From a virus (lineage: Duplodnaviria; Caudoviricetes): 26,641 nt of DNA. The first letter of the stretch is position 1, and the number at the start of each line of letters is the position of its first letter. The position numbers and the translations under genes are program-made. Below are positions 3,674 through 25,149 of this stretch, piece after piece. A model generated the notes under the pieces. The model was not told the origin of the DNA. It made no database searches and saw only the letters and a list, made by a program, of their open reading frames with translations. The stretch is from positions 1 through 26,641 of IMG/VR virus record IMGVR_UViG_3300044724_002573; one strand, written 5' to 3'.

Positions 3674-3964
3674 TCAAAGCCCTGCTGCTCCTTTGCCGTA
3701 GTCAGAGTAGACAGCGATTGCCCCATACTTGATAGCCTCATGAGCATCATCGTGACCCACATGCTTGCCATTAGCTTTCTCAGGAAGCTCACGGCGAAGG
3801 GTCAGGTAGAGGTCGAGCAGATCCTTCACCTCCTCCTCCCAATGAGGGTTGAGATCAGAGAGAGTCTTGATGGCAGCACCGACCAGCATAGATGCCTCAT
3901 GGATCTTGAGGTCAGCGATGTCGTGGATGCCCTGAGGGAGTTTGTTGTAGTTGTTGATCTTCAT
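3674..3964 (-). CDS. hypothetical protein (leaderless, early-type)
   Basis: ATG lies 6 nt downstream of a sigma70-like -10 box. Confidence 0.75.
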   Translation of the reverse strand: MKINNYNKLPQGIHDIADLKIHEASMLVGAAIKTLSDLNPHWEEEVKDLLDLYLTLRRELPEKANGKHVGHDDAHEAIKYGAIAVYSDYGKGAAGL

Positions 3965-8601: not shown

Positions 8602-9088
8602 TGTATTCCTCATAATCAAACCACATGGGCTTGGTGCTAGGGTTCCAAGTCCAAGTAGCGAACTTGCGCTTCTCTTGGCAGTAGAACCTACGATACGCCT
8701 CTACACAATCAGGACCTTTGAGGTAGTCAGGCATACATTGAGGAGGGTCCTCCCAGCCAGCGTGAGGGAGAGGAGGGCTGTAACACAGGATGTGGCCTAG
8801 TTTGGTCCACGATGCGTGGTCCTTGCCTCGACGCTCACGGAACTGGTTGTTGAGTTCACGCCACAGTTCGTAGAGCCAAGCGTAGTGGTCGATGGATGCA
8901 CGGGTCCAGATGGTGCTGGGATGGTTGAGGTGTGCGATCTTGTAGCATTGATCGGCATACGGGCTGTCAGTCACACGATGAGCCGTGGACATAAGCTGTG
9001 CATACTCGATGATCATCTTGCTACAATGTTGATCACAATGCCACTCAGCGCAAACACGCGGGTTTTTTGCAAGGAAGAAGATGTTCAT
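8567..9088 (-). CDS. pyrimidine-dimer DNA glycosylase / endonuclease V-like protein
   Basis: MNIFFL...HCDQH..KMIIEYAQLMSTAHR, HLNHPSTIW and PQCMP, as in the DenV-related phage family. Confidence 0.8.
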   Translation of the reverse strand: MNIFFLAKNPRVCAEWHCDQHCSKMIIEYAQLMSTAHRVTDSPYADQCYKIAHLNHPSTIWTRASIDHYAWLYELWRELNNQFRERRGKDHASWTKLGHILCYSPPLPHAGWEDPPQCMPDYLKGPDCVEAYRRFYCQEKRKFATWTWNPSTKPMWFDYEEYNEARRELSANS

Positions 9089-9094
9089 GGGTAT

Positions 9095-9122
9095 ATAGTA
9101 GCAGGTGATTTAACCATGTCAA
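9095..9122 (-). promoter_or_regulatory. sigma70-like promoter TTGACA-16-TACTAT
   Basis: -35 at 9117-9122 and -10 at 9095-9100, with the ATG 6 nt downstream. Confidence 0.75.
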
Positions 9123-9616
9123 GGATAGACGAACTAAAATGTTGGCCTGGGTACAGAAGAGTTAGGGGCAAGGTCCCTGGCTCCAAAGGTTCATGCAAGC
9201 GAATGGGCGAGAGCATCTATGATAGAATAGGTGACCTGTTAGTAGAAGACCTACGCAAGTGGGTAAAAGAAAGATGGGTAGACATTGGCGCACCTAAGAA
9301 AGGTGGAGGATTTAAGCCTTGTGGTAGATCCAAGGGTGAGAAGCGTAAAGGATATCCCAAGTGTGTTCCTGCTGCTAAAGCTTCTCGCATGAGTAAGGGT
9401 CAGCGTAAGTCTGCTGTCAAAAGAAAACGAGCCGCTGGTAACCCTGGCGGTAAACCTACCATGGTTTCAACCTTTAAAGAAAGTATTCTCGCTTCCATAG
9501 CCACAGGAGCAGCAACGGATTTGTCCAAGGCAGCAGGGTCATACCTTGCTAACAAACTCATTAAGAAATTTAAGAAAAAACCTACAAAAACTACAGACAA
9601 TGAAACGCAGAGATAA
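9116..9616 (+). CDS. basic modular phage protein (CWPGY and LRKW..E.WVDI..CGRS..YPKCVP modules)
   Basis: Start reassigned to ATG 9116 with an AGGTG SD. The modules recur in phage hypothetical proteins. Confidence 0.75.
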   Translation: MSRIDELKCWPGYRRVRGKVPGSKGSCKRMGESIYDRIGDLLVEDLRKWVKERWVDIGAPKKGGGFKPCGRSKGEKRKGYPKCVPAAKASRMSKGQRKSAVKRKRAAGNPGGKPTMVSTFKESILASIATGAATDLSKAAGSYLANKLIKKFKKKPTKTTDNETQR

Positions 9617-10148
9617 AAAAAGTTTGCCATTTGCTGTCTGCACAAAGAATGTAGGCAGGAAGAACAAATCTAAATATGAAAGGTGCGTTATGAAAGTAAA
9701 AGCAAGTGTTAACGAAGGTAAGTTATGCCCCAAGGGCAAAGCAGCAGCAAAGAGAAAATTTAGTGTTTATCCCTCTGCCTATGCTAACATGTATGCCTCT
9801 GCCGTTTGTAGTGGCAAGGTCAAGCCAGGAGGCAAGAAAAACGAAGCTTACGAGCGTCTCGGCTCATTGTTAATGGAGAAATCCCCTGCTTGGCAAAGAA
9901 GTGAAGGAAAGAACCCTGAGGGTGGATTAAATGCTAAGGGCGTTGCTTCCTATCGTGCTGCTAACCCAGGTTCAAAGCTTAAAACTGCTGTGACAACCAA
10001 GCCCAGCAAGTTAAAGAAGGGTAGCAAGGCAGCCAAGCGTAGAAAGTCCTTCTGTGCTAGAATGAAAGGGATGCGTAAGCGTCAGAAGTCCAGCAACAAC
10101 ACAGGTAAGGATCGTCTATCTCTTTCCTTAAAGAAGTGGAACTGCTGA
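9600..10148 (+). CDS. basic modular phage protein with a DUF6321-like C-terminal domain
   Basis: AWQRSEGKNPEGGLN...RRKSFCARM...KWNC, plus a YPSAYAN module. Confidence 0.75.
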   Translation: MKRRDKKSLPFAVCTKNVGRKNKSKYERCVMKVKASVNEGKLCPKGKAAAKRKFSVYPSAYANMYASAVCSGKVKPGGKKNEAYERLGSLLMEKSPAWQRSEGKNPEGGLNAKGVASYRAANPGSKLKTAVTTKPSKLKKGSKAAKRRKSFCARMKGMRKRQKSSNNTGKDRLSLSLKKWNC

Positions 10149-10206
10149 TCTGAAATTTGACTTTTCCACAATGTCATGGGGTATATACTTATGAGGTATA
10201 TGCCCC

Positions 10207-10647
10207 ATGTCTACTTTAAGTGAAAATACCGAACTTACGCTACCTTTGCGTAATATCATAGCTTTGCTAGTTGCTACCGCTGCTGCTGTGATGTCTTACT
10301 TTCAGATCAATGAGCGTCTGAATAAGTTGGAAAATAACCAAACTATTACATCTATGGATGTGGATAAAAATACGGAATTCCGTATTCGCTGGCCCAGAGG
10401 AGAGATTGGATCTCTACCTGCTGATGCCGAACAGTTTATGTTGATAAAGAACCTATCCGAAGAGATAGACAAGATTCAATCTATGATCGAGACAGGACAA
10501 GCTCCTCACGATCAGCAACAAGAACTCACCTTAAACTTTTATCGTGAGCGTATTGCAGAGTTAGAATCTGCTGTAAATGTATTAAAGGACCGTCAGGTCG
10601 AACTTGTTCATTCGATAAAAAGTGGTGTGAACATTACTGATAGATAG
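10207..10647 (+). CDS. membrane-anchored coiled-coil protein
   Basis: One N-terminal TM helix and a heptad-rich remainder. Confidence 0.75.
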   Translation: MSTLSENTELTLPLRNIIALLVATAAAVMSYFQINERLNKLENNQTITSMDVDKNTEFRIRWPRGEIGSLPADAEQFMLIKNLSEEIDKIQSMIETGQAPHDQQQELTLNFYRERIAELESAVNVLKDRQVELVHSIKSGVNITDR

Positions 10648-10670
10648 TATATAAAATAGAGGTGCCTACC

Positions 10671-11054
10671 ATGCCTACTAGAAATGATGAGAAATATATT
10701 GATGTCGAATCCGCTGTCCGACTTAAGGAAGCAGAGGGAAAAATTGAGATCCAGCGTTATGAGCTTGAGACAGCCGCCAAGTTCAGGGAGCTTGAGATTA
10801 CAGAGAGTGCTAAAGAGGTTGCGTCCAAGCACCTTGCCAAGTGGGCTGGACTGTATCTTACTTTCCTCGTTTCTCTTTTTATCTTTTCTATTGAGTTCGT
10901 TCCTAGCGAGAGTTTGGCTGTAGTCGCAGGACTCATCACTCTTGTGGTCACTAACCTATCCACCATTCTCAAGCACATTGTAGAGAATGGTAAGAGAGAT
11001 AAAGAAGAAGAGGAGCCAAAAGCTCCTCTTCCAAAACCTCCTGTTAAGAAGTGA
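10671..11054 (+). CDS. two-TM membrane protein (holin-like topology)
   Basis: Two hydrophobic segments, a charged C-terminal tail and a GAGGTG SD. Confidence 0.65.
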   Translation: MPTRNDEKYIDVESAVRLKEAEGKIEIQRYELETAAKFRELEITESAKEVASKHLAKWAGLYLTFLVSLFIFSIEFVPSESLAVVAGLITLVVTNLSTILKHIVENGKRDKEEEEPKAPLPKPPVKK

Positions 11055-13417: not shown

Positions 13418-13597
13418 TCAGTCTTGGTCCTTTTTCTTACGAATGCTGCGCTTTTTACGAGTTGTCTTCTCTTGATACTCTAGTTCTGCTGCATCCTCTT
13501 CTTCCTCTACAACTTCTTGTAGAGGAGCGGGTGCAGGTTGTACACCTTTTCTAGCGGCTTTACGCTCTCTCATCCTCTGTGCTAAGTTCTTCTTCAT
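13418..13597 (-). CDS. 59-aa charged protein (MKKNLAQRMRERKAARKG...)
   Basis: Translated by hand. ATGA overlap with the Clp ATPase stop. Confidence 0.65.
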   Translation of the reverse strand: MKKNLAQRMRERKAARKGVQPAPAPLQEVVEEEEDAAELEYQEKTTRKKRSIRKKKDQD

Positions 13598-14964
13598 ATT
13601 ACTAACTTATTGTTTTTCACTTTTACATCGTAAAGCTTACCAGTCTTAGGCTGCTCTCCACTCAGTATACTGTCAGCTAGGAGAGACTTAACCTCACGGG
13701 TGATAAACTTTGCAATGAAACGGGCTCCGTATTGTTCCGAAGTACCGTTCTCAATTATATAGTTAAGAAGTGCCTTGGTTTTACGAACTGGTAGGTTTTT
13801 TATCTCAAGTTTTGCTACCTTGAGCAAGTCCTCCTTGCTAAGATAGTTAAAGTGTACCATCTCATCAACCCTACCAATAAACTCAGGGCTGAACTTCTTC
13901 TTCACAGACTTCTTTATAGCCTCCTTAGAACCCTCGTAGGTGATTGTTTCCTTCCCGAAGCCCAAGGTACTCTCTCCAATGTTTGCGTCCTTTATACCTT
14001 CGTTAGAGGTCATTAGAATGATGCTTTCGGAGAAGTCTAGCTCCTGCCCATTAGATGCCATAACCTTGCCATCATCCATAAGGGCAAGCATGAAGTCGAA
14101 TAGTTTAGGTGATGCCTTCTCAATCTCATCAAAGAGAAGCACCCACTTGTTGCTCTTCTCTGCTTTTACTTGTAGGATAGATTTCTCTGTGCTACCAACA
14201 TAGCCAGGAGGAGATCCAATAAGTTTAGCGTATTCGTGCTGCTGTGCGTATTCAGAACAGTTGATCTTAAAGAAATTACCTGAGTAGTGATCTCCTAGGA
14301 CCTTAGCCAGTTTGGTCTTACCAACGCCTGTAGGCCCAATGAACATCAGGGAGACATTCTGGGCGAGTTCAGCTACCATGAGCTTCACATAGCGTACTAC
14401 GCTGTCAATGGCCTCATCCTGGCCTATAACCTCTTTGCGTAGCTCTGCCTCTAGCTTGTGAATATCAGCAAGGGTTTTAAGAGAGCGTTCTTCACCCTTT
14501 GGCTGATCGTCAACGAGTTTACTTCCTGTCCTACGCCTAGTTCTTTTCTTAGGCGCTTTTTCATCAGTTTTATCATATAGTTCTTCTAAGAACGAGTTAA
14601 GAAAACCTTTGAGAGTCTCTTGGTTTAGAGATTGCACAATGTTTTCCAGTTGCAGGTTAGGATACACCTGACAAACTGACATATAAATGCTTTCGATAAT
14701 GCCTGCATAGACCTGATCGAAATCCTCTTCATAGGCTTCTTTAATAGTCTGCTCACACTTTGCAAGCAACTTATTGCCTTCGACAACAAAATCGTTAATA
14801 ACCTTGATCTCGTAATCCAGAAGATCTATTGATGTAGACTTCTTGATCATCTTATAGACATCTTGCCTATACTTCTCAAGACTATTGGTATCTAACGCAC
14901 GAACAGAGATAATCTCGTTGATTGCGTCACAGAATACTTTAAAAGTGTTGCCGTCTTTGGACAT
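13594..14964 (-). CDS. ClpA/ClpB-family AAA+ ATPase with a single (D2-like) module
   Basis: Motifs VIGQDEA, GPTGVGKT, LIGSPPGYVG, LLFDEIEKA, PEFIGRVD and YGAR. Confidence 0.9.
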   Translation of the reverse strand: MSKDGNTFKVFCDAINEIISVRALDTNSLEKYRQDVYKMIKKSTSIDLLDYEIKVINDFVVEGNKLLAKCEQTIKEAYEEDFDQVYAGIIESIYMSVCQVYPNLQLENIVQSLNQETLKGFLNSFLEELYDKTDEKAPKKRTRRRTGSKLVDDQPKGEERSLKTLADIHKLEAELRKEVIGQDEAIDSVVRYVKLMVAELAQNVSLMFIGPTGVGKTKLAKVLGDHYSGNFFKINCSEYAQQHEYAKLIGSPPGYVGSTEKSILQVKAEKSNKWVLLFDEIEKASPKLFDFMLALMDDGKVMASNGQELDFSESIILMTSNEGIKDANIGESTLGFGKETITYEGSKEAIKKSVKKKFSPEFIGRVDEMVHFNYLSKEDLLKVAKLEIKNLPVRKTKALLNYIIENGTSEQYGARFIAKFITREVKSLLADSILSGEQPKTGKLYDVKVKNNKLVI

Positions 14965-14969
14965 ATTAA

Positions 14970-15314
14970 TTACTCGCTTAGATCCTTCCATGAAGGGGGT
15001 GCCTCGTCCTTCATAGTAGTAGTGCTTTTGCTCTTGCTGAGTTTTTCTTCTGCTTTGATAAAGGTATCTAAACCTTTAATCGCCGTATTCTGGGCAGATT
15101 GCATAAGCTTTAAGCACTCGATCATACATTTGCGAGCGTCCATGTCTCTGATATCATCAGAGTGCGCTGAGTTGTCTACAATGTCCTTGAAGAACTCATA
15201 CGCTTGTTTGGCTAGGTTTCTGTCCTCTCTAGCCTGCTTGAGCATATCAGCACAAGCCTTCTTTAATCTCTCAGGAGATAAATGATCTGTCTTGGGAATA
15301 TATACTTTCGCCAT
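14970..15314 (-). CDS. hypothetical helical protein
   Basis: ORF tiles the operon. Confidence 0.7.
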   Translation of the reverse strand: MAKVYIPKTDHLSPERLKKACADMLKQAREDRNLAKQAYEFFKDIVDNSAHSDDIRDMDARKCMIECLKLMQSAQNTAIKGLDTFIKAEEKLSKSKSTTTMKDEAPPSWKDLSE

Positions 15315-17066: not shown

Positions 17067-17459
17067 TCAGACTAAATCTCTGAGATCTGGTGCTTGGTAG
17101 TTAGGTCCTTTGAGGATCTTGCCGTCCTGTCTACGGATTGGCTTACCTTCTTCATCAAGCTTACTCATGTTGCTTTCATGCACTCTTTTGAATGCCTCAT
17201 CAAAGTCCCAGCCGAACTCTACGAACATGCCTAGAATAACATAAACTAGGTCACATGCCTCCTTCATAATCTCAGCAGGAGTGTCCGCATTCACTAGCTC
17301 ACGAAACTCCTCGTTGTTGAGATCGAAGCGTAGCTTGATACGATCCGCATCCTCCTTAGTGAGCTTGGTGAAGTCCTCGCTCATAGTAACAGTTCCTCTT
17401 GGCATATCGTATGCTTTGTGGAACTCGTCTACTCTTTTATAATGGATTGATTTTGCCAT
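17067..17459 (-). CDS. MazG-like / PRA-PH family NTP pyrophosphohydrolase
   Basis: Motifs V.EFHKA, EEF.EL, KEACDLVYV, VHESNMSK and DGKILKGPNY. Confidence 0.9.
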   Translation of the reverse strand: MAKSIHYKRVDEFHKAYDMPRGTVTMSEDFTKLTKEDADRIKLRFDLNNEEFRELVNADTPAEIMKEACDLVYVILGMFVEFGWDFDEAFKRVHESNMSKLDEEGKPIRRQDGKILKGPNYQAPDLRDLV

Positions 17460-18424
17460 AATATCTCTTTCACCTTCTGTGCTGACTTGCCATCACCGTA
17501 AGGGCAAGGCTCGTTTATAATAGGATCATTAACCACATCATTGAAGACTCTTTCCAAATCTTTTGGAGATAGGCATAACTTCAAATGATTGACAGCCTCA
17601 GGTCTTTCCGTAACAGTTCTACACACAATACTCTTCTTATTTAAAAAAGTAGCTTCTTCTTGTATACCACCACTATCAGTTATCGTACACAAGCATGTTC
17701 TTAGAAGTTCTATGAGATCAGAATGTTGAAGAGGATCAACAACAGTAACCGACTTCAAAAGATGTCGATGCTTTTGCACATTTGGGTTAGGATGGATCGG
17801 TAGTATAAAATCTATATCAGCGTTTCTTCTAGCCAATCTATCAAGCTCCTCGAACCACTCTGCTATCATGTCATGGTTCTCTCTTCTGTGGAGAGTAACT
17901 AGAACTTTATTATCATAAATTATGTTGTCTTTATACTGGACTATATTGTCCAATACTGTGTTACCTACTACTTCAATGCTACCCAAACACCTTTCGTCTA
18001 GTAACCTACCCTCAGCAAGTTCTGTAGGGCAAAGATGTATAGTAGCAATTCTAGAAATCATCTGCCTGTAGCCTTCTTCTGGGTAAGGGTTCTCAAGATC
18101 ATATGACCTAAGACCAGCCTCTAGATGAATCACTCTTAGTCCTCTATTGAATGCGGCTAGGGCACAGCCAAAAGCAGAAGCAGTATCACCTTGCACTAAC
18201 ACACTGTCAATATCTGGATCATCTGGAAAAGATCCTAGGCAGCTTGAGATCACATCATCTAGTCTGTTACCAGTTGTTGATTTATAACTAGGTGTGTAAT
18301 CGAAGTTTATTTCCTTTACTAAATCCTCATGCTGACCTGTAAACAAAAGCTTGCAGTCTAAGTGAGGCAGAAGAGGTTTAATCTTCAACCACTCAGGTCT
18401 TGTTCCGAAGCAAATTAGAATCAT
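17429..18424 (-). CDS. wecB: UDP-N-acetylglucosamine 2-epimerase (non-hydrolysing)
   Basis: Motifs FGTRPE, TGQH, VQGDT, HLEAGLRS, PYPEE, LHRREN, TDSGGIQEEA and PYGDG. Confidence 0.95.
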   Translation of the reverse strand: MILICFGTRPEWLKIKPLLPHLDCKLLFTGQHEDLVKEINFDYTPSYKSTTGNRLDDVISSCLGSFPDDPDIDSVLVQGDTASAFGCALAAFNRGLRVIHLEAGLRSYDLENPYPEEGYRQMISRIATIHLCPTELAEGRLLDERCLGSIEVVGNTVLDNIVQYKDNIIYDNKVLVTLHRRENHDMIAEWFEELDRLARRNADIDFILPIHPNPNVQKHRHLLKSVTVVDPLQHSDLIELLRTCLCTITDSGGIQEEATFLNKKSIVCRTVTERPEAVNHLKLCLSPKDLERVFNDVVNDPIINEPCPYGDGKSAQKVKEILWQNQSIIKE

Positions 18425-18993
18425 TTATCACACTTCCTTATAACCATGTATCCACATGTAAGACTTCCATTGGATATCTTCTTGTCTGAAGACTCAAATT
18501 TTTTATTGAAGTATTCCTCAAACTCATTAATCTTTAATCCAGGAATATCGAAGGTGACGATTAAGTAACCTCCTACCTTTACCATGCTCAACAGATTTTG
18601 GAAGATATCTACTTGCCCTACTGGGATTTCTTCCAGGGTTGATATGTTAAGAACGAAATCATATTTTTCTAACCATTCTTTTTTTGGACTATGCGTCAGA
18701 TCATAAACTTCTGTGTTTTCTAGTTTAGATTTCTTTTGATCAGTGCTTAATACATTACCTTTTTCAAACATGCACTCCAAGTCTTCCTTAAAAGATACAT
18801 GAATAGATCCCACATCTCTCCAATATTCATTTCCCCAAGAAGTGTTATGTACTAAAGAGCTAGAGTCTGAATACTTTGATAGTAATTCTAAAACAAGAGG
18901 ATATTCATATATTCTAGACCAGTGCCTGTATTTTAAGTTTGATTCTAGGCTAGTTTCTATGGATTTAAATTCTAAAACTTCAAATATATTCAT
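18421..18993 (-). CDS. class I SAM-methyltransferase-like protein (divergent)
   Basis: RIYEYP, YDFVLNISTLEEI and VKVGGYLIVTFD; motif I is degenerate. Confidence 0.6.
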   Translation of the reverse strand: MNIFEVLEFKSIETSLESNLKYRHWSRIYEYPLVLELLSKYSDSSSLVHNTSWGNEYWRDVGSIHVSFKEDLECMFEKGNVLSTDQKKSKLENTEVYDLTHSPKKEWLEKYDFVLNISTLEEIPVGQVDIFQNLLSMVKVGGYLIVTFDIPGLKINEFEEYFNKKFESSDKKISNGSLTCGYMVIRKCDK

Positions 18994-19729
18994 ATAAGTG
19001 GACCTTTGTTAGATTAATTAGATCTTTTATGGAAGCACTGTTTATTTTTTGAAATAGGATATGGTTTTTAGAACCTTGTCCTCCTAGTTCCTTATGCCTT
19101 GTCACTCCTGCATAGTGCATGACCCAGGAGTTTTCTGACGAAACGATATCCCTTCCAGATGATAGGATTCTCCATACTAAGTCATCGTCTTCGCATCTTT
19201 GAGGATGATAATCTTTTAAGTAATATCCTCCTACCTCATCAATCTTTTTGAGCTTTATCAGCCAAGGATGTACCTGTCTAGATTTATTATGTACTTTTTT
19301 AACCCTTCTTCTGGTACAATGCTTTTCAAGATCTTCCACACTGATAATATTTTTAGACAAGAAGATACCGGGCTGTAGAATAATGGCATTGTCCGTATCA
19401 ACCTCTAACAGTGCATTAAACCATTGTTTTGGAAAAAGCATGTCAGCATGTAGTTCAAGGAGAAAATCAAAACCTTGATCTTTAATTTTATTGAACAAGT
19501 TAATTCTTGGGATAACAATTCCTTGATTATCTTGGCTGACGGTTACTTCCTTGTCAATATCCAGTTGCTCTACAAATTCATTAATACCATCGGTTGAGTT
19601 GTTATCCCAATGAAATAACTTTACTTCATGCTCAAAAAGATCTGATTCAAGTAATGAAGAAATGCAGTCTTTAGAGTATTTAAAATCATTGCAGGTGAGC
19701 AACGATATGGCTATTTTAATTTTTCTCAT
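18980..19729 (-). CDS. glycosyltransferase family 2
   Basis: Motifs WDNNSTDG, LHADM, EVGGY and CEDDDLVWR. Confidence 0.85.
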   Translation of the reverse strand: MRKIKIAISLLTCNDFKYSKDCISSLLESDLFEHEVKLFHWDNNSTDGINEFVEQLDIDKEVTVSQDNQGIVIPRINLFNKIKDQGFDFLLELHADMLFPKQWFNALLEVDTDNAIILQPGIFLSKNIISVEDLEKHCTRRRVKKVHNKSRQVHPWLIKLKKIDEVGGYYLKDYHPQRCEDDDLVWRILSSGRDIVSSENSWVMHYAGVTRHKELGGQGSKNHILFQKINSASIKDLINLTKVHLYEYI

Positions 19730-20265
19730 ATCTTGTAAGCCGTAATATGAGGATAAGGTTGTGAATCATAAACCTCTATAACCTTATAACCTAAATCAGT
19801 CCACTCCTCTACCGTCCAAGATGAAATATGTTTTTCATGGGGATTGCCATACGCCTCTCCTTGTGGTTCTTCACCTAAAGGCATACCGAAAATTAGATAC
19901 TTATACTTCTCTTCCAGGGACGGCAGTATACTTAAAAAATCCTCCTTCAACAAATGCTCTGGTCCGTGCCAAAACATTAGGCAATCGGAGTCGGGAAGGC
20001 TACTTACTTCTTTTATATTTAAATTATGTATCTTGTCCTTTGGGCATCCTTTAGATATAGCATCAAGAACATTTAGCTCAAACACTTCTACGATGGACCA
20101 ATCTATGTTATTAGCTTCACATATTTTTATCCACCAATGCCTTCTCGGATCCTGCCAATCATGGAACCCTACATTTACGAATGAATCCAGGTTTCCTGAT
20201 AGATCAGAAAGAATCTGACAAACTGTTTGTTCTCTTTGCGTATAGTTGTGTTCCGGTATAATCAT
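19726..20265 (-). CDS. methyltransferase-fold-like protein (divergent)
   Basis: Motifs VNVG, VEVF, WHGPEHL and YGNPHEKHISSW. Confidence 0.5.
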   Translation of the reverse strand: MIIPEHNYTQREQTVCQILSDLSGNLDSFVNVGFHDWQDPRRHWWIKICEANNIDWSIVEVFELNVLDAISKGCPKDKIHNLNIKEVSSLPDSDCLMFWHGPEHLLKEDFLSILPSLEEKYKYLIFGMPLGEEPQGEAYGNPHEKHISSWTVEEWTDLGYKVIEVYDSQPYPHITAYKI

Positions 20266-20266
20266 A

Positions 20267-20968
20267 TCACCATATGCATGTTTTACTCAATGTGCTTGCT
20301 CCTCTCAAGTAGCCTCTATCCGCTCCTATTCCAAGCTCAACATTGAAAACACTTCCTAAATCTATAATAGTATGATGTGGGTATTTTTCAAATAGTTTCT
20401 TGCATAGAATATTAGCAAAAGGTCCAGCACATATTAAGACAAGCTCATGCTCAGTAGAAGTGGAAAGTTGCTTGTCTAACTTATCATACACATCTGCATT
20501 ATTAATCCAGGCATTAGCTCCTACACTATAACTGTGGTCTACTTTGAATGGTAGTTTATCTGTATTACCCTTAGCTACTATAGTTACATTGTAATTATCA
20601 AATAAAGGGGTGATCTCGTTTCTAAATGCTTTATAGTTTGAATTAACAAATATGTTTGCCCAGGTTAGTTTACCATCGTCCAACCTCGTCTGCTTCTTCA
20701 TACTCTCCGACTTGTCCTTTCCGACACAGCAAGGACAAGCTACACCTACAAAGTAATTTTCCTGATTGTGTGTGAACGAGTCTAGTAAATCTCTTCTGAG
20801 ATGATCTTGACCATCAAAGTTGAATTCTCCTTTCCAAAGGAGATCAATCTTTTTATTATTTAAGATCATCATCTCACCATCCCCAAATCGTGATATAGAA
20901 AATGGAGTCTTCTCGCTGAGAAGCTTTTTAATGTAGTTCAAATCTCCTTTGAAACTATCAGTCAGCAT
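20267..20968 (-). CDS. GT-D fold (DUF1792-like) glycosyltransferase
   Basis: Motifs SISRFGDGE, LICAGP and IDLGSVF. Confidence 0.75.
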   Translation of the reverse strand: MLTDSFKGDLNYIKKLLSEKTPFSISRFGDGEMMILNNKKIDLLWKGEFNFDGQDHLRRDLLDSFTHNQENYFVGVACPCCVGKDKSESMKKQTRLDDGKLTWANIFVNSNYKAFRNEITPLFDNYNVTIVAKGNTDKLPFKVDHSYSVGANAWINNADVYDKLDKQLSTSTEHELVLICAGPFANILCKKLFEKYPHHTIIDLGSVFNVELGIGADRGYLRGASTLSKTCIW

Positions 20969-21689
20969 CTTTAACTAATCTCCATCCATTTCTTCTAAAC
21001 AACTGTACACAATAGTCCCTCTCTCCATAGTGGATATGTATTGGTTTAATTGATCCATTAGAAGAGGCTTTACTGTCATTACCATATTCTGCTTTTTTAG
21101 AACTAGTCATCTCAGGATCTGACTCTGGATGAGGGGGGCAGTATGATCTAACATTTCCATACTTTTGAGCTAGATAAGACAACTGAATATCTTCTGCATT
21201 GTCTAATGTTACAGGTGTCTCTCTCCAAAGATAGTTAAGATGCTCTCTATGTAGGAACCACGCATGACCCACTAGATCAACTTCTACGATCTCATTATTT
21301 TTACTGTGCCATCCCTCTTTTACATTCTGATGGTAGTGATCTCCTATGATACGCACACCTGCTCCTCCTAAGATTCCAGGGCTAACCTTCATGGTATGTA
21401 AGCAGTTTTCAAACCATTTAGCTCCTGGAATAGTATCGTCATCAAAGAAAGCAACATGCTCAGTCTGTGCTAGTAGCCCAATAGCAAACCTAGCGTGATA
21501 CTTACAGTTAGTGTCAGAGATGAACACCTTATCCAGACCGAGAGATTCAAAGTCGTATCCTTTGTTCTCATCAGTGGTGTTGACCCATAACCAGATGGCA
21601 TCAGGCTTTACCGTCTGTGAACGGAGAGCCTTGATCTGTTCTTCCAAATACTCAGGTCTCTTATAACAGTTTAGGATTACAGTAATCAT
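20958..21689 (-). CDS. glycosyltransferase family 2 (GT-A)
   Basis: Motifs VILNCYKRP, FFDDDTIPG and EDIQLS. Confidence 0.85.
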   Translation of the reverse strand: MITVILNCYKRPEYLEEQIKALRSQTVKPDAIWLWVNTTDENKGYDFESLGLDKVFISDTNCKYHARFAIGLLAQTEHVAFFDDDTIPGAKWFENCLHTMKVSPGILGGAGVRIIGDHYHQNVKEGWHSKNNEIVEVDLVGHAWFLHREHLNYLWRETPVTLDNAEDIQLSYLAQKYGNVRSYCPPHPESDPEMTSSKKAEYGNDSKASSNGSIKPIHIHYGERDYCVQLFRRNGWRLVKDAD

Positions 21690-22474
21690 TTCATCATCTC
21701 CATGAACTCATTGAAGACACGATCCTCTTCCCATAACTCTAGAGTATCGTTAGTGGCGCTCTCGGTTCCTCTGTATTCAATGCCTGCTCGTATACACTCA
21801 GCACGAACTCTGCCGAAGGACTCAGGCACTTTGCTTATAGTAGATTGATACACGCAGGATACGCTGTCATAGATCTTCTGTCTATCCTTCTCCATGCCCA
21901 TGTAAATCACATTATCTGACAGGAGAGGTTTAACCTTCGCATTGAAGTAGTTAGTATCATTCACATTACCGTAAATGCGAACCTCTTTACATCCATCATC
22001 TAAAGCTCTTTGAATAGATTCATGAACTCCCTTGATTGGGTTGACGGTCCCTATGACCGCAGCTATACCCTCCTCGGTGTTCTTACTCTTTGTAATCCCT
22101 CTTACAAGATTAGGGATAACCTTGCCGTCCACTCCTTGCCAATCTTTCTGCCTCTGGCTAACATACCTAATCGCATCAGCGCCAGAAATGTTGTGCTGCT
22201 TGACATCAAAGATTGCTGTCTCATGGCAGGAAAGTATTACCTTTCTGCAAGGAGGTCTTTGAGGCATGTCCATGAAGTGAAACAAGAGAACATCATCAGA
22301 CTCTATCCTAATATTCTGTAACATGTCTGCCTTAGAACACTTGTCCAAGTGCCAATCATGAGGACCGTAAAAGGTACAGTCCAGTCCTCTCTCGTTAAAG
22401 AGATCACATAGTTCCATCAGAGAGAAGGTTGAACCACCTTCTGCTGACCATCCACTAGCTATTTTTACTTTCAT
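21686..22474 (-). CDS. GT-B fold glycosyltransferase (GT4-like)
   Basis: Motifs GGST, VIPN, IGTVNPIKG and ESFGRVRAE; start MKVKIASG. Confidence 0.8.
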   Translation of the reverse strand: MKVKIASGWSAEGGSTFSLMELCDLFNERGLDCTFYGPHDWHLDKCSKADMLQNIRIESDDVLLFHFMDMPQRPPCRKVILSCHETAIFDVKQHNISGADAIRYVSQRQKDWQGVDGKVIPNLVRGITKSKNTEEGIAAVIGTVNPIKGVHESIQRALDDGCKEVRIYGNVNDTNYFNAKVKPLLSDNVIYMGMEKDRQKIYDSVSCVYQSTISKVPESFGRVRAECIRAGIEYRGTESATNDTLELWEEDRVFNEFMEMMK

Positions 22475-23639
22475 TGTTTGCTCCAAGTAGTTGCTCGTAG
22501 AGTTCGTATCTAAACTTGACAACCTTGTTGATATCAAAGTATTCATCAGTTATCTTCTTTAGATTCATACCCATCTCCTCACGACCTTTCTTGTCCTTGA
22601 TCACCTTAGTCATGATACGAACCCACTCAGACTTAGGATTGGACTTGTCTATGAGATAGCCTGTCTCTCCATTACGGATAGTCTCATCATAGCAACCGCA
22701 GTTAGTTGCGACAAGAGGAATACCATAACGACCACACTCAGCTACTTTGATCTCACTCTTACTGTCGTTGAAGTTATTAAACTGTAGAGGGGCGATAGCT
22801 ACATCCATGTTAGTGTAGAACTGACCATACCTATCTGGTCCCATGGCTGGTCGTACAGCCCAGTTCTTAGAGCCTCTCATACCGCTTACAAGCATCCTCT
22901 GGTAGTTGTCCCAGACATCCTGCTGCCAGTCCTTCTTTCCGTCCTGTGGCATTGGAGGGCGTCCATAGAAGTCCCACCACACACGCTCACGACCAGCCTT
23001 TTGATTGACCAGCCATGGAATACCTACGAACTCTTTAAGATCTTGCTCATGGTGAATACCGCCTACCCAACCAACACGGCAAAGGTTCTTTCTTTGAGGT
23101 AGTATCTTTGCCATATTCCAGCAAGGTAGATCATAATCAATTGCATTCTTTACAACAGCTAATGTAGTATTCTCACCACAGAAAGGATGAACCCTCTCTG
23201 CGAACTTCTTCTGTGTAACAGTTACAAGGTCAGAGTTGTTATAGATGAACTTAGTTATATCACTAAGACCTTTCTCTTGATATACTTTCTCTAGTCGGTG
23301 ACCTGCATAAACATCAGTTAGAAGATCATCAGTATCGTAATGCATGAACTTTCCAAACTTCTTAGCCATACCTACGATACGAGCAGTGTAAGGTCCACCG
23401 AAGTTAGAAAGATTCTGGGTGAAGATAATGTCAGCCCACTTCATGTCCTCGAACTGCCAGTCTTCTTTCCATTGACCAGCCTTAGGCCCTTCTTCCTCTA
23501 TACCGAGAGGATTCTTGTTGAACCTAATCTCTACATCATCACCGTGATGTTGAGCCATCTTGTTGAAGGGGAGCCAAGCTCTATAATACGCACATCCGCC
23601 ATCATTAGCGGGAACAACAAGTATCTTTAGTTTACTCAT
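22455..23639 (-). CDS. GT-B fold glycosyltransferase (GT4-like)
   Basis: Motifs GGCAYYR, YDTDDLL, VGWVGG..H, DVAIAPL..FN..KSEIK..E and NGETGYL. Confidence 0.85.
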   Translation of the reverse strand: MSKLKILVVPANDGGCAYYRAWLPFNKMAQHHGDDVEIRFNKNPLGIEEEGPKAGQWKEDWQFEDMKWADIIFTQNLSNFGGPYTARIVGMAKKFGKFMHYDTDDLLTDVYAGHRLEKVYQEKGLSDITKFIYNNSDLVTVTQKKFAERVHPFCGENTTLAVVKNAIDYDLPCWNMAKILPQRKNLCRVGWVGGIHHEQDLKEFVGIPWLVNQKAGRERVWWDFYGRPPMPQDGKKDWQQDVWDNYQRMLVSGMRGSKNWAVRPAMGPDRYGQFYTNMDVAIAPLQFNNFNDSKSEIKVAECGRYGIPLVATNCGCYDETIRNGETGYLIDKSNPKSEWVRIMTKVIKDKKGREEMGMNLKKITDEYFDINKVVKFRYELYEQLLGANNESKNS

Positions 23640-23646
23640 AATAAGA

Positions 23647-23672
23647 AGAGAGGTGGCTTTCACCACCTCTCT
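23647..23672 (-). promoter_or_regulatory. 10-bp hairpin between a TATAAT box (23673-23678) and the start of the GT operon
   Basis: AGAGAGGTGG-TGAAAG-CCACCTCTCT. Confidence 0.6.
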
Positions 23673-23733
23673 ATTATAGTGCAAGTCTGAGTTTTTTAAA
23701 GCGCCCGTCTAACGCTTTTTTCGAGTTTCTAGA

Positions 23734-23812
23734 CTGTCTACTTCGCTGCCCGACAGGATCCCCTAGAACACTCTAGTAGGATCACCTCCTTCGTCGGGAT
23801 TGGCTCAGACAG
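23734..23812. ncRNA. candidate structured ncRNA containing a 13-nt 16S rRNA 3'-end match
   Basis: Four nested stems; GGATCACCTCCTT at 23779-23791. Confidence 0.55.
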
Positions 23813-23821
23813 CATCAAACA

Positions 23822-24379
23822 TCATGCAACAGGTTCTTCGGGTACTTCTTCGTACTCCCACTCAGAATCATCTTCAGCAGCAATCTTAGATGCCTCAGAT
23901 GAGTGTGATAGGCCAAGACCAGCACCAATAGCTTTTACAGTGCCCACAAGATCAACAGAGGTGTCTCCTTTGTGAGGTACAAGAGCTTTGGCTGCCTTGA
24001 CATAATGCTTGCGCTTACGCTGAGAGAAGAGTGTGACAACACCTTCCCATGCAGCAAGGCCAGGGAGGAAGGTACTAGCAATACCAAACCCTGCGTCGAT
24101 CATGGCACCAAGATCCTCACCGCTAGGAGCAGCAGGGATATAAGCAGCATCTTCTTTAAGTTGCTCCTTATCTGCCATTACGACAGTTGTGCCTTCAGGA
24201 ACTTTAGCCTTGATCTCTTCAGGAAGCTGCTCCCATGGGATGACAGCACCTTGTTGACCTTCGGCAAGTTGATCAGCGGTGGTAAAGACAGTACCCTCGC
24301 CTAGGAATTCCTCAAGCATAGCGCAAGATGCAACACCAAACGCTAGGACTGAGGCTGCGATTACATTGATTAGTTTCAT
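23822..24379 (-). CDS. lipoprotein
   Basis: MKLINVIAASVLAFGVASC lipobox. Confidence 0.8.
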   Translation of the reverse strand: MKLINVIAASVLAFGVASCAMLEEFLGEGTVFTTADQLAEGQQGAVIPWEQLPEEIKAKVPEGTTVVMADKEQLKEDAAYIPAAPSGEDLGAMIDAGFGIASTFLPGLAAWEGVVTLFSQRKRKHYVKAAKALVPHKGDTSVDLVGTVKAIGAGLGLSHSSEASKIAAEDDSEWEYEEVPEEPVA

Positions 24380-25149
24380 GACAATAGCCTCTTAGTAAAA
24401 TCATCATCGGAACCCGCATCCGAATCATCTTCTTGAAGAGTGCGTTCCCGTGGCTGTAGTTCAGGCCGCAGGTTGAGAACTGCCTCTTTCACATCATCGT
24501 ACTCTTCAAGCTTCACAAGGGAGTGAATATCGTGAAGAGACTCCATCACCTCTGAGATCATCTTCTTGCTGCCAAGCGGAGTTGCCTTAGGACGGAACAT
24601 GGATTGATCGTACTTGGGCCATTGACCTTCCTTCTTCATGTGAAGCTTGAAGTCGTGGCCGATCTCGGTATCAAGGATACCATTCTCAGACTGCTCGAAA
24701 AGATCAGCGTAGTCGGGATCCATCATAGTCTCGACAATCTTCTGGAACAGGATAACGCCAATGGAGAAGATCTTGACCTCCTCGTTCTCACGATCATAGG
24801 CGTTCAGGTAGTAGCGAGCACGGGGCTTGATCTGGCGAGCAAGATCCTCGTCCTCCTTGGAACCAGTCTTCCACAAGGCGTAGTAAAGATCACAGAGAGG
24901 GCATTTCTCTCCATGCACCTTGCGGCAGTGTACATTCTTCACCGAACCATCAGGCTGAGGGACACGGTGGATTTTAGTCTCTGCGTAGAAGTTCTTGTCA
25001 GAATCAGCAGAGGCGGGAAGGATGCGAAGATAAGCCTCGCCCTCCTTTACTTGGTAGAACTTGTTCAGGAAGTCCTGATCTCCACCAGCGGCTTTAGGGT
25101 TGGTAAGTTGTTGGTGCTTCTGACGAAGCGCGTTTAGGTCAATAGCCAT
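24376..25149 (-). CDS. gp32-like single-stranded DNA-binding protein
   Basis: LRILP, H...C.....CPLC zinc site, GHDFKL, YDQS.F and an acidic C-terminal tail. Confidence 0.85.
   Translation of the reverse strand: MAIDLNALRQKHQQLTNPKAAGGDQDFLNKFYQVKEGEAYLRILPASADSDKNFYAETKIHRVPQPDGSVKNVHCRKVHGEKCPLCDLYYALWKTGSKEDEDLARQIKPRARYYLNAYDRENEEVKIFSIGVILFQKIVETMMDPDYADLFEQSENGILDTEIGHDFKLHMKKEGQWPKYDQSMFRPKATPLGSKKMISEVMESLHDIHSLVKLEEYDDVKEAVLNLRPELQPRERTLQEDDSDAGSDDDFTKRLLS

Follow-up and report, generated by a model that had tools for sequence, protein, structure and literature searches.

What does a perfect complement of the 16S rRNA 3' tail do in a place where no gene follows it? The question is raised by a 26,641-nt stretch of viral DNA (IMG/VR record IMGVR_UViG_3300044724_002573, positions 1 to 26,641; hereafter, the window), which is part of a T4-like phage encoding a gp32-like SSB, DnaB, UvsX/RecA, glycosyltransferases and four tRNAs. 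A first-pass annotation had placed nested stems around an SD motif on the minus strand at 23734-23812, and both stems and motif were found there; the conserved unit, on the other hand, is 23698-23798 instead. The reading that we tentatively prefer, giving it somewhat less than an even chance, is that of a start-less docking switch for 30S subunits in the likely 3' UTR of an ssb-'lipoprotein' operon, likely stabilising the mRNA. The parts of the locus are listed below along the minus strand, with folds A and B denoting two alternative structures of the RNA.

24376-25149, minus strand: gene for a gp32-like ssDNA-binding protein (ssb), first of the operon (PHROG 1192, E 1e-29; Pfam gp32, E 2e-17)
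23822-24379, minus strand: 185-aa lipoprotein-like ORF with an N-terminal hydrophobic stretch and a Cys; the element lies after its TGA
23807-23812, minus strand: 5' strand (CTGTCT) of the outer stem, not conserved; another hairpin stands there in L010 and L284
23698-23798, minus strand: conserved 101-nt core, likely 3' UTR; within the window, model R1 matches here only
23792-23798, minus strand: 5' strand of P1 in fold A (partner 23749-23755), with pairing changes among the 7 cores
23779-23791, minus strand: 13-nt 16S complement; in fold A its first 8 nt lie in an internal loop and its last 5 form P2 with 23757-23761
23772-23776, minus strand: left arm, forming P3 with the middle strand in fold A; C-G to U-A in L284
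23763-23773, minus strand: middle strand, common to P3 (fold A) and P4 (fold B); also contains GTG-TTC-TAG
23749-23756, minus strand: strand common to P1 (fold A) and P5 (fold B), from the motif parse of the cores
23734-23738, minus strand: 3' strand of P5 in fold B, retained where the outer-stem partner is missing
23723-23732, minus strand: right arm, which repeats the left arm minus the SD and gives the 3' strand of P4 in fold B; G-C to A-U and bulge removal in L284
23698-23718, minus strand: hairpin C with two U-G pairs, then a run of A; RNA contigs continue beyond it
23673-23679, minus strand: CTATAAT promoter-like box, found in relatives with or without the element
23647-23672, minus strand: terminator-like hairpin D of 11 bp, where the ssb transcript likely ends (region z -5.2; terminator scan); relatives have it
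22455-23639, minus strand: glycosyltransferase gene, likely with its own transcript (PHROG 7162, Pfam PF00534)

The element starts 24 nt behind the stop codon of the 185-aa ORF, which we take to be lipoprotein-like under the lipobox rules. Searches of PHROG and Pfam assigned this ORF to no family, and among the matches listed for its 242 homologues all were unnamed or hypothetical. No relative of the protein was found in GTDB contigs, which were searched for a host. In nearly all relatives (23647-23679 in the window; most of L001-L054) the CTATAAT box abuts the 5' arm of the terminator-like hairpin, so that termination of the ssb operon and, inside the hairpin, initiation of the glycosyltransferase transcript may share a single site.

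The 16S complement, its carriers and its constraint

On the plus strand, positions 23779-23791 read GGATCACCTCCTT, the exact 13-nt 3' tail of 16S rRNA. The sequence has one exact copy in the window and none in any of 100 shuffles, and the expectation of a 13-nt match by chance, calculated from composition, is 6e-4 per window. Tails of 16S rRNA were picked in genomes by the 13-mer standing behind a helix-45 motif. Eight of the 120 loci returned were scanned with Rfam; all eight were SSU rRNA and ended at model position 1533 of 1533, and with this the perfect complement that the first-pass annotation had described is confirmed. As U is the next 16S base in 81 of the 120 tails, a fourteenth pair can come from the A or G that precedes the phage motif on its 5' side, and the complement is therefore 13 nt long when counted as exact and 14 nt with that 5' A/G opposite U. 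The bases flanking the phage 13-mer mismatch the common 16S flanks. The 13-mer is identical across 7 distinct cores, in sets drawn from IMG/VR and metagenome searches that had required it.

The lipoprotein-like gene was located at 57 IMG/VR loci, three of which end too early to be read. Nine of the 54 readable relatives carry the element, in every case behind the ssb-'lipoprotein' operon and all in one subclade of uncultured marine T4-like phages, and the other 45 are without it. Accordingly spaced, the stop codon and the CTAT box lie 141-157 nt apart in carriers, compared to 15-18 nt in most non-carriers. In a tree of 36 rows (built without duplicates, the two loci that lack downstream DNA and two short matches), the 8 carrier rows occupy one side of a branch with support of 93/86, under the starred level; one change is enough to place them, and none of 500 label shuffles gave a number as low. 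One copy of the element is present in relative G001 (L307-L312), a 112-kb T4-like genome, 100% complete by CheckV, whose capsid protein is about 28% identical to the capsids of T4-like coliphages and cyanophages. As read from these genomes, the element is a single-copy, derived insert of one subclade with one origin.

Wider searches agree with this distribution. No copy beyond the subclade came out of pattern scans of IMG/VR, metagenomes and GTDB genomes, where the exact patterns used would miss diverged forms, or of blastn against annotated phages. Of 23 loci matched in the metagenome scan, 13 were the element, all after the same gene and some on the same contigs. In the GTDB genomes one pattern gave 0 loci and another gave 8, and model R1 matched none of these eight. 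The same model found no copy in four element-less relatives, one of them 99% complete, and over 35 of the 36 ssb loci it matched known contigs only.

Other insertions occupy the same place in related phages. In L019, L038, L042 and L045-L047 there are about 230-260 nt where carriers have the element, with an apparent small acidic ORF, and by eye this segment is unlike the element. L028-L030 (74 nt) and L455 have other, unrelated hairpin inserts after the lipoprotein-like gene, and L056, L466 and L467 have an ORF after the operon that by eye looks like an HNH endonuclease. The spot after the lipoprotein-like gene may be a hotspot for 3' UTR structures. A GGG(G)TAGT hairpin motif, in which we see a faint likeness to the ops signal, recurs upstream of glycosyltransferase genes in L010 and L284 (in both, 5' of the core) and in L450 (inside hairpin D).

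Divergence in the core was compared with that at four-fold sites of the adjacent gene. Against four relatives, the 101-nt core shows 0-3 substitutions and 3-4 gap positions, whereas 25/77 to 37/79 of the four-fold sites differ (32-47%; Fisher p<=1.6e-9 in all four comparisons). The unpaired stretches are likewise constrained. From this contrast between neighbouring sequences, the element is judged to be under strong sequence constraint. Recent exchange could contribute to the low divergence: the most diverged element, that of L284, adjoins a near-identical gene end.

The outer CTGTCT/AGACAG stem, which the first-pass annotation had counted as part of the structure, is gone in 2 of the 7 core variants (L010 and L284), where its 5' strand is lost and AGACAG is retained.

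Two mutually exclusive folds

The minus strand of the 79-nt segment originally marked folds at -30.6 kcal/mol (z -2.6), and none of 200 shuffles was as good, as expected from the structured RNA proposed at first; fold B and hairpin C come in addition to that proposal. In the predicted pairing AAGGAG is mostly unpaired (0.5-0.99) and AUCC is paired. Fold A consists of P1, of P2, in which the GAUCC end of the SD pairs with the RNA's own GGAUC, and of hairpin P3, with AAGGAGGU in the internal loop. In fold B the middle strands pair instead to the 3' side, giving P4 (10-11 bp) and P5 (5-7 bp). Ribozyme topologies (HDV-like, hammerhead) were considered and set aside, with no fit by eye to their consensus.

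The helices were followed through the 7 distinct cores with pairs taken from a motif parse, because MAFFT misaligns L284 in the right arm. P1 changes from G-U to A-U in 2 of 7 cores, and three of the 7 show a single C-A break in it. L284 has a G-to-A change at the final base of the shared strand, with C-to-U changes in both of its partners, a triple covariation that comes from this one sequence and that random five-substitution trials yielded 189 times in 3,000,000; moreover, the bulge of P4 is closed there, so that its 11 bp are perfectly paired. Two paired insertions in the L003/L006 lineage lengthen P5 to 7 pairs, and P1 gains a mismatch. On these parsed cores, the helices of both folds are seen to covary, once at the same base.

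Energy predictions give the two folds different standing in the free and the bound RNA. The fold A hairpin has a predicted probability of 0.98-0.999 in the free RNA of all 11 variants, and in the free window RNA fold B lies 10 kcal/mol above it. With the 13-nt complement bound, RNAcofold, which by construction bars pairs enclosing the bound SD, predicts at least 6 pairs of P4 in 11/11 variants and P5 in 10/11. Under a softer constraint, with the SD merely unpaired, the probability of fold B is 0.001-0.82 with a median of about 0.1, compared to at most 0.003 in the free RNA. P4 also forms in all 7 cores when the fragment 3' of the SD is folded; measured against tail shuffles, fold B reaches z -0.7 to -3.7 and is clearly better in 2 of the 7 cores only.

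Covariation of this kind has a second possible source. In PMC7202029 and PMC8604942, template switching between inverted repeats is described as able to perfect their arms without selection, and it could explain part of the covariation. A palindromic insert acting as DNA (a protein-binding site, an origin or a relic), with arms made by template switching and a coincidental 16S match, would suit the lineage-restricted, nested inverted repeats and the perfect arms of L284 and L006, which are what template switching produces. We hold it to be very unlikely, as the 13-nt match is far from expected by chance in one window, the unpaired stretches are constrained, the minus strand retains its G-U pairs and the complete 112-kb relative has a single copy.

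Transcripts across the element

Twenty-four sequencing runs were listed, and the 8 labelled as RNA were examined, all as metatranscriptome contigs, which show neither strand nor level. Contig X3 (1453 nt) extends from about 25137 (extrapolated; 12 nt inside the start of ssb) through the lipoprotein-like gene and the element to about 23685. X4, from the same study as X3 (P3), ends at about 23665 and X16 (study P8) at 23687; all three connect the upstream gene to the element with no loose end. The RNA that the first-pass annotation had supposed is covered by these contigs, together with the upstream genes. They give a weak hint of one ssb-'lipoprotein'-element transcript that ends near hairpin D, past hairpin C, bearing in mind that a contig may stop at a graph branch where strains differ. 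A further contig, X1 (depth 3.3), passes the terminator and reaches 23572. In 4 of the 8 runs the contigs do not cover the element; X2, X8, X11 and X14 contain coding pieces only, and the gaps there should not be taken as absence. Small word shares had suggested a free, abundant small RNA, an idea rejected because those four contain coding pieces only.

Two roles suggested at first fit this arrangement poorly. An SD-type stabiliser of the glycosyltransferase operon is unlikely, because the promoter-like CTATAAT box and the terminator-like hairpin intervene and three RNA contigs stop there. RNA from the plus strand, mimicking the anti-SD and masking host RBSs, was the other. The plus strand also folds (z -2.8, with 4 of 200 shuffles as good), and the C-A break that P1 has in three cores is a G-U pair on that strand. 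The neighbouring genes and the fitting transcript belong to the minus strand, hairpin C depends on G-U pairs of that strand, and folding favours the minus strand in 11/11 variants, partly through its richness in G; in addition, a promoter scan showed no plus-strand promoter-like site between 23137 and 24378. The plus-strand mimic is consequently given hardly any weight, and the start-less docking switch is considered below on the minus strand.

Proposed docking of 30S subunits: known systems and rival readings

Small mRNAs of Alphaproteobacteria, rreB and rreR, have a 17-nt extended SD, and rreB mRNA binds the 30S subunit through it, led by a toehold in a single-stranded seed (PMC5711450). A GUG-to-UAG mutant of rreB is still ribosome-bound, and its half-life increases from 10 to 37 min (PMC5711450). 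In the same study, a 14-nt rreB derivative starting at the SD is mostly not ribosome-bound, which counts against the docking switch preferred here. The element resembles rreB in its very long 16S-tail complement, with the 5' part as a single-stranded seed and the 3' part caged in a hairpin (in the element, by prediction), in the predicted melting on 30S binding, in weak or no translation and in a nearby GUG. The rreB RNA is transcribed on its own, is 165 nt long and has a conserved ORF of 14 aa with its GUG abutting the SD, whereas the element has 13-14 nt of complement in a phage 3' UTR, no conserved ORF and a second covarying fold. Members of rreB/rreR have at least 16 nt of 16S complementarity, and the element has 13 exact and 14 at most; in them the GUG of a conserved small ORF overlaps the complement at its end, and here the GTG is 7 nt away and lost in L284; the single-stranded seed with the remainder in a hairpin is found in the element too, by prediction only.

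STAB-SD of the Bacillus thuringiensis cry3A mRNA is an SD-like site that starts no gene (PMC4113751). The likeness is an SD-like site thought to hold a 30S subunit and so affect mRNA decay; in the element no start is conserved at 0-5 nt, although a minigene keeps some plausibility. STAB-SD is described as a short site near the 5' end of the processed mRNA, where it blocks RNase J1 ahead of the coding sequence, unlike the element, which lies behind the last stop codon within a two-state structure. STAB-SD is defined by its 5' UTR position, and the element comes after a stop codon and before a promoter and terminator. The element stands outside both rreB/rreR and STAB-SD and yet probably acts in a similar way; what sets it apart from both is its place in a 3' UTR and its second covarying fold.

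Translational riboswitches and type I toxin mRNAs have alternative folds that sequester an SD. The element shares with them mutually exclusive helices that cage or free the SD, and differs in having no Rfam aptamer family, no gene after the SD and, as predicted trigger, the 16S tail. An Rfam search (riboswitches, ribozymes, tmRNA, SRP, 6S) placed no family over the element at the gathering score, with a best E of 1.2 in 23600-23900, and a tRNA/tmRNA search gave none at the element. A literature search that covered few subscription papers returned none on the element or on an RNA refolding in response to 16S rRNA.

The only start codon noted downstream of the 13-mer opens GTG-TTC-TAG at 23771-23763, a frame of two codons with its GTG 7 nt behind the 13-mer. 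In L284 the GTG is GTT, and an ATT at +1 stands in the same frame. Among 55 distinct phage contexts of the 13-mer, 18 combine a start no more than 8 nt away with an ORF of 30 codons or longer; in the 14 of these that use ATG and serve as comparators, the ATG lies 0-3 nt behind the 13-mer in 13 and 0-5 nt behind it across all 14. At the 0-3 nt positions the element reads TAC, ACT, CTA and TAG. Two coding readings, an ORF of 25-28 codons that spans the element and readthrough of the upstream TGA, were discarded, as start, frame and stop are not constant. The exposed super-SD without a gene, as first proposed for the minus strand, is supported by the strong constraint, the unconserved GTG and the RNA contigs that span the upstream genes.

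The element could alternatively be the RBS of a weakly translated minigene, like rreB or lambda bar, reading GUG-UUC-UAG, or AUU-AGA-GUU-UUC-UAA in L284, both versions sharing a frame and a stop. These recur in all 9 variants translated, and rreB likewise uses GUG (PMC5711450). In S. aureus, starts at the non-canonical codons AUU/AUA are supported by extended SDs (PMC13009471), and since these help such starts the minigene keeps some plausibility. Its GUG is nonetheless 7 nt from the 13-mer where the ATG comparators have 0-5 nt, the start codon itself is not conserved, the change from TAG to TAA is needed by helices P3/P4 anyway and a product of two codons would not account for constraint on 101 bases. 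We regard the minigene as improbable and return to the docking switch.

If the element is a start-less docking switch, the RNA would first take fold A, in which AAGGAGGU lies open in the internal loop and would serve as a toehold while GAUCC is caged. By pairing with this toehold the 16S tail would displace the RNA's own GGAUC, a copy of the 16S sequence, and the right arm would then capture the freed middle strand, giving fold B. With that strand held by the right arm, the cage could not re-form and the SD duplex would persist. The 30S subunit would be parked without initiation, there being no start at initiation distance and helix P4 standing five bases behind the duplex, and we infer that the parked subunit would slow the decay of the mRNA that encodes SSB, which is required in quantity. 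STAB-SD shields RNA on the 3' side of its site, and here that side has only about 130 nt, which counts against protection of that kind. The further step, in which the 16S tail is the ligand of a ribosome-triggered switch and the SD-less decoy arm locks the RNA open, we consider doubtful; if true, the element would act where a phage ssb message ends, as a one-way trap or sensor for free 30S subunits.

In any case, the element constitutes a compact, fully specified 101-nt test object for start-less ribosome docking in phage 3' UTRs and for the 16S tail as trigger of a natural RNA switch. Should the docking or the switch be true, phages would have an RNA-only route to tune mRNA lifetime or ribosome supply, and expression work a portable 3' stabiliser.

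A broader effect on the host's ribosomes is conceivable, in which the ssb mRNA or a processed 3' fragment of it traps free 30S subunits and favours leaderless mRNAs, which use 70S ribosomes. The arguments for docking apply to such a sink equally, and many window genes have CTATAAT or TACTAT 5-7 nt before ATG, with 10 and 21 raw matches to such patterns, counted with no control, in G001. SD-led genes are present as well, however (28 raw GGAGG-ATG matches in G001), the element is single-copy and the 8 RNA-labelled runs contain no separate small-RNA contig. Overproduction of rreB by 20-fold, with binding to ribosomes, had no effect on growth (PMC5711450), which weighs against a global 30S sink. 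We therefore think this sink unlikely, and for the decoy RNA favouring leaderless mRNAs that was imagined at first, no evidence of a free, abundant RNA came from those 8 runs.

The two covarying folds might also respond to a trigger other than the 16S tail (the phage SSB, an antisense RNA or a ribosome at termination) and control termination or processing at hairpins C/D, with the SD match as a read-out or secondary. The position of the element, 24 nt after a stop codon and ahead of a terminator, would suit such a switch, as would the precedent of T4 gp32, which regulates itself through mRNA structure. But hairpin C is predicted to be unaltered by either fold, no conserved pairing with hairpin D was seen and the 13-nt 16S match is left unexplained, so that we rate this quite unlikely beside the 16S-docking switch.

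Some further features of the window were noted. Genes upstream of which TACTAT or CTATAAT stands 5-7 nt before ATG, and which are probably leaderless, are found at 3964, 5164, 9088, 11870, 12200 and 17037, the one at 9088 with TTGACA 17 nt further upstream; a normal AGGAGG precedes a few genes (6131, 15826). From about 9000 to 11054 a plus-strand island of Lys-rich small ORFs with reversed GC skew interrupts an otherwise minus-strand region. A ClpB-like AAA ATPase is encoded at 13594-14991, and 17429-23639 is a glycosyltransferase/epimerase gene cluster, the content of which differs in G001.
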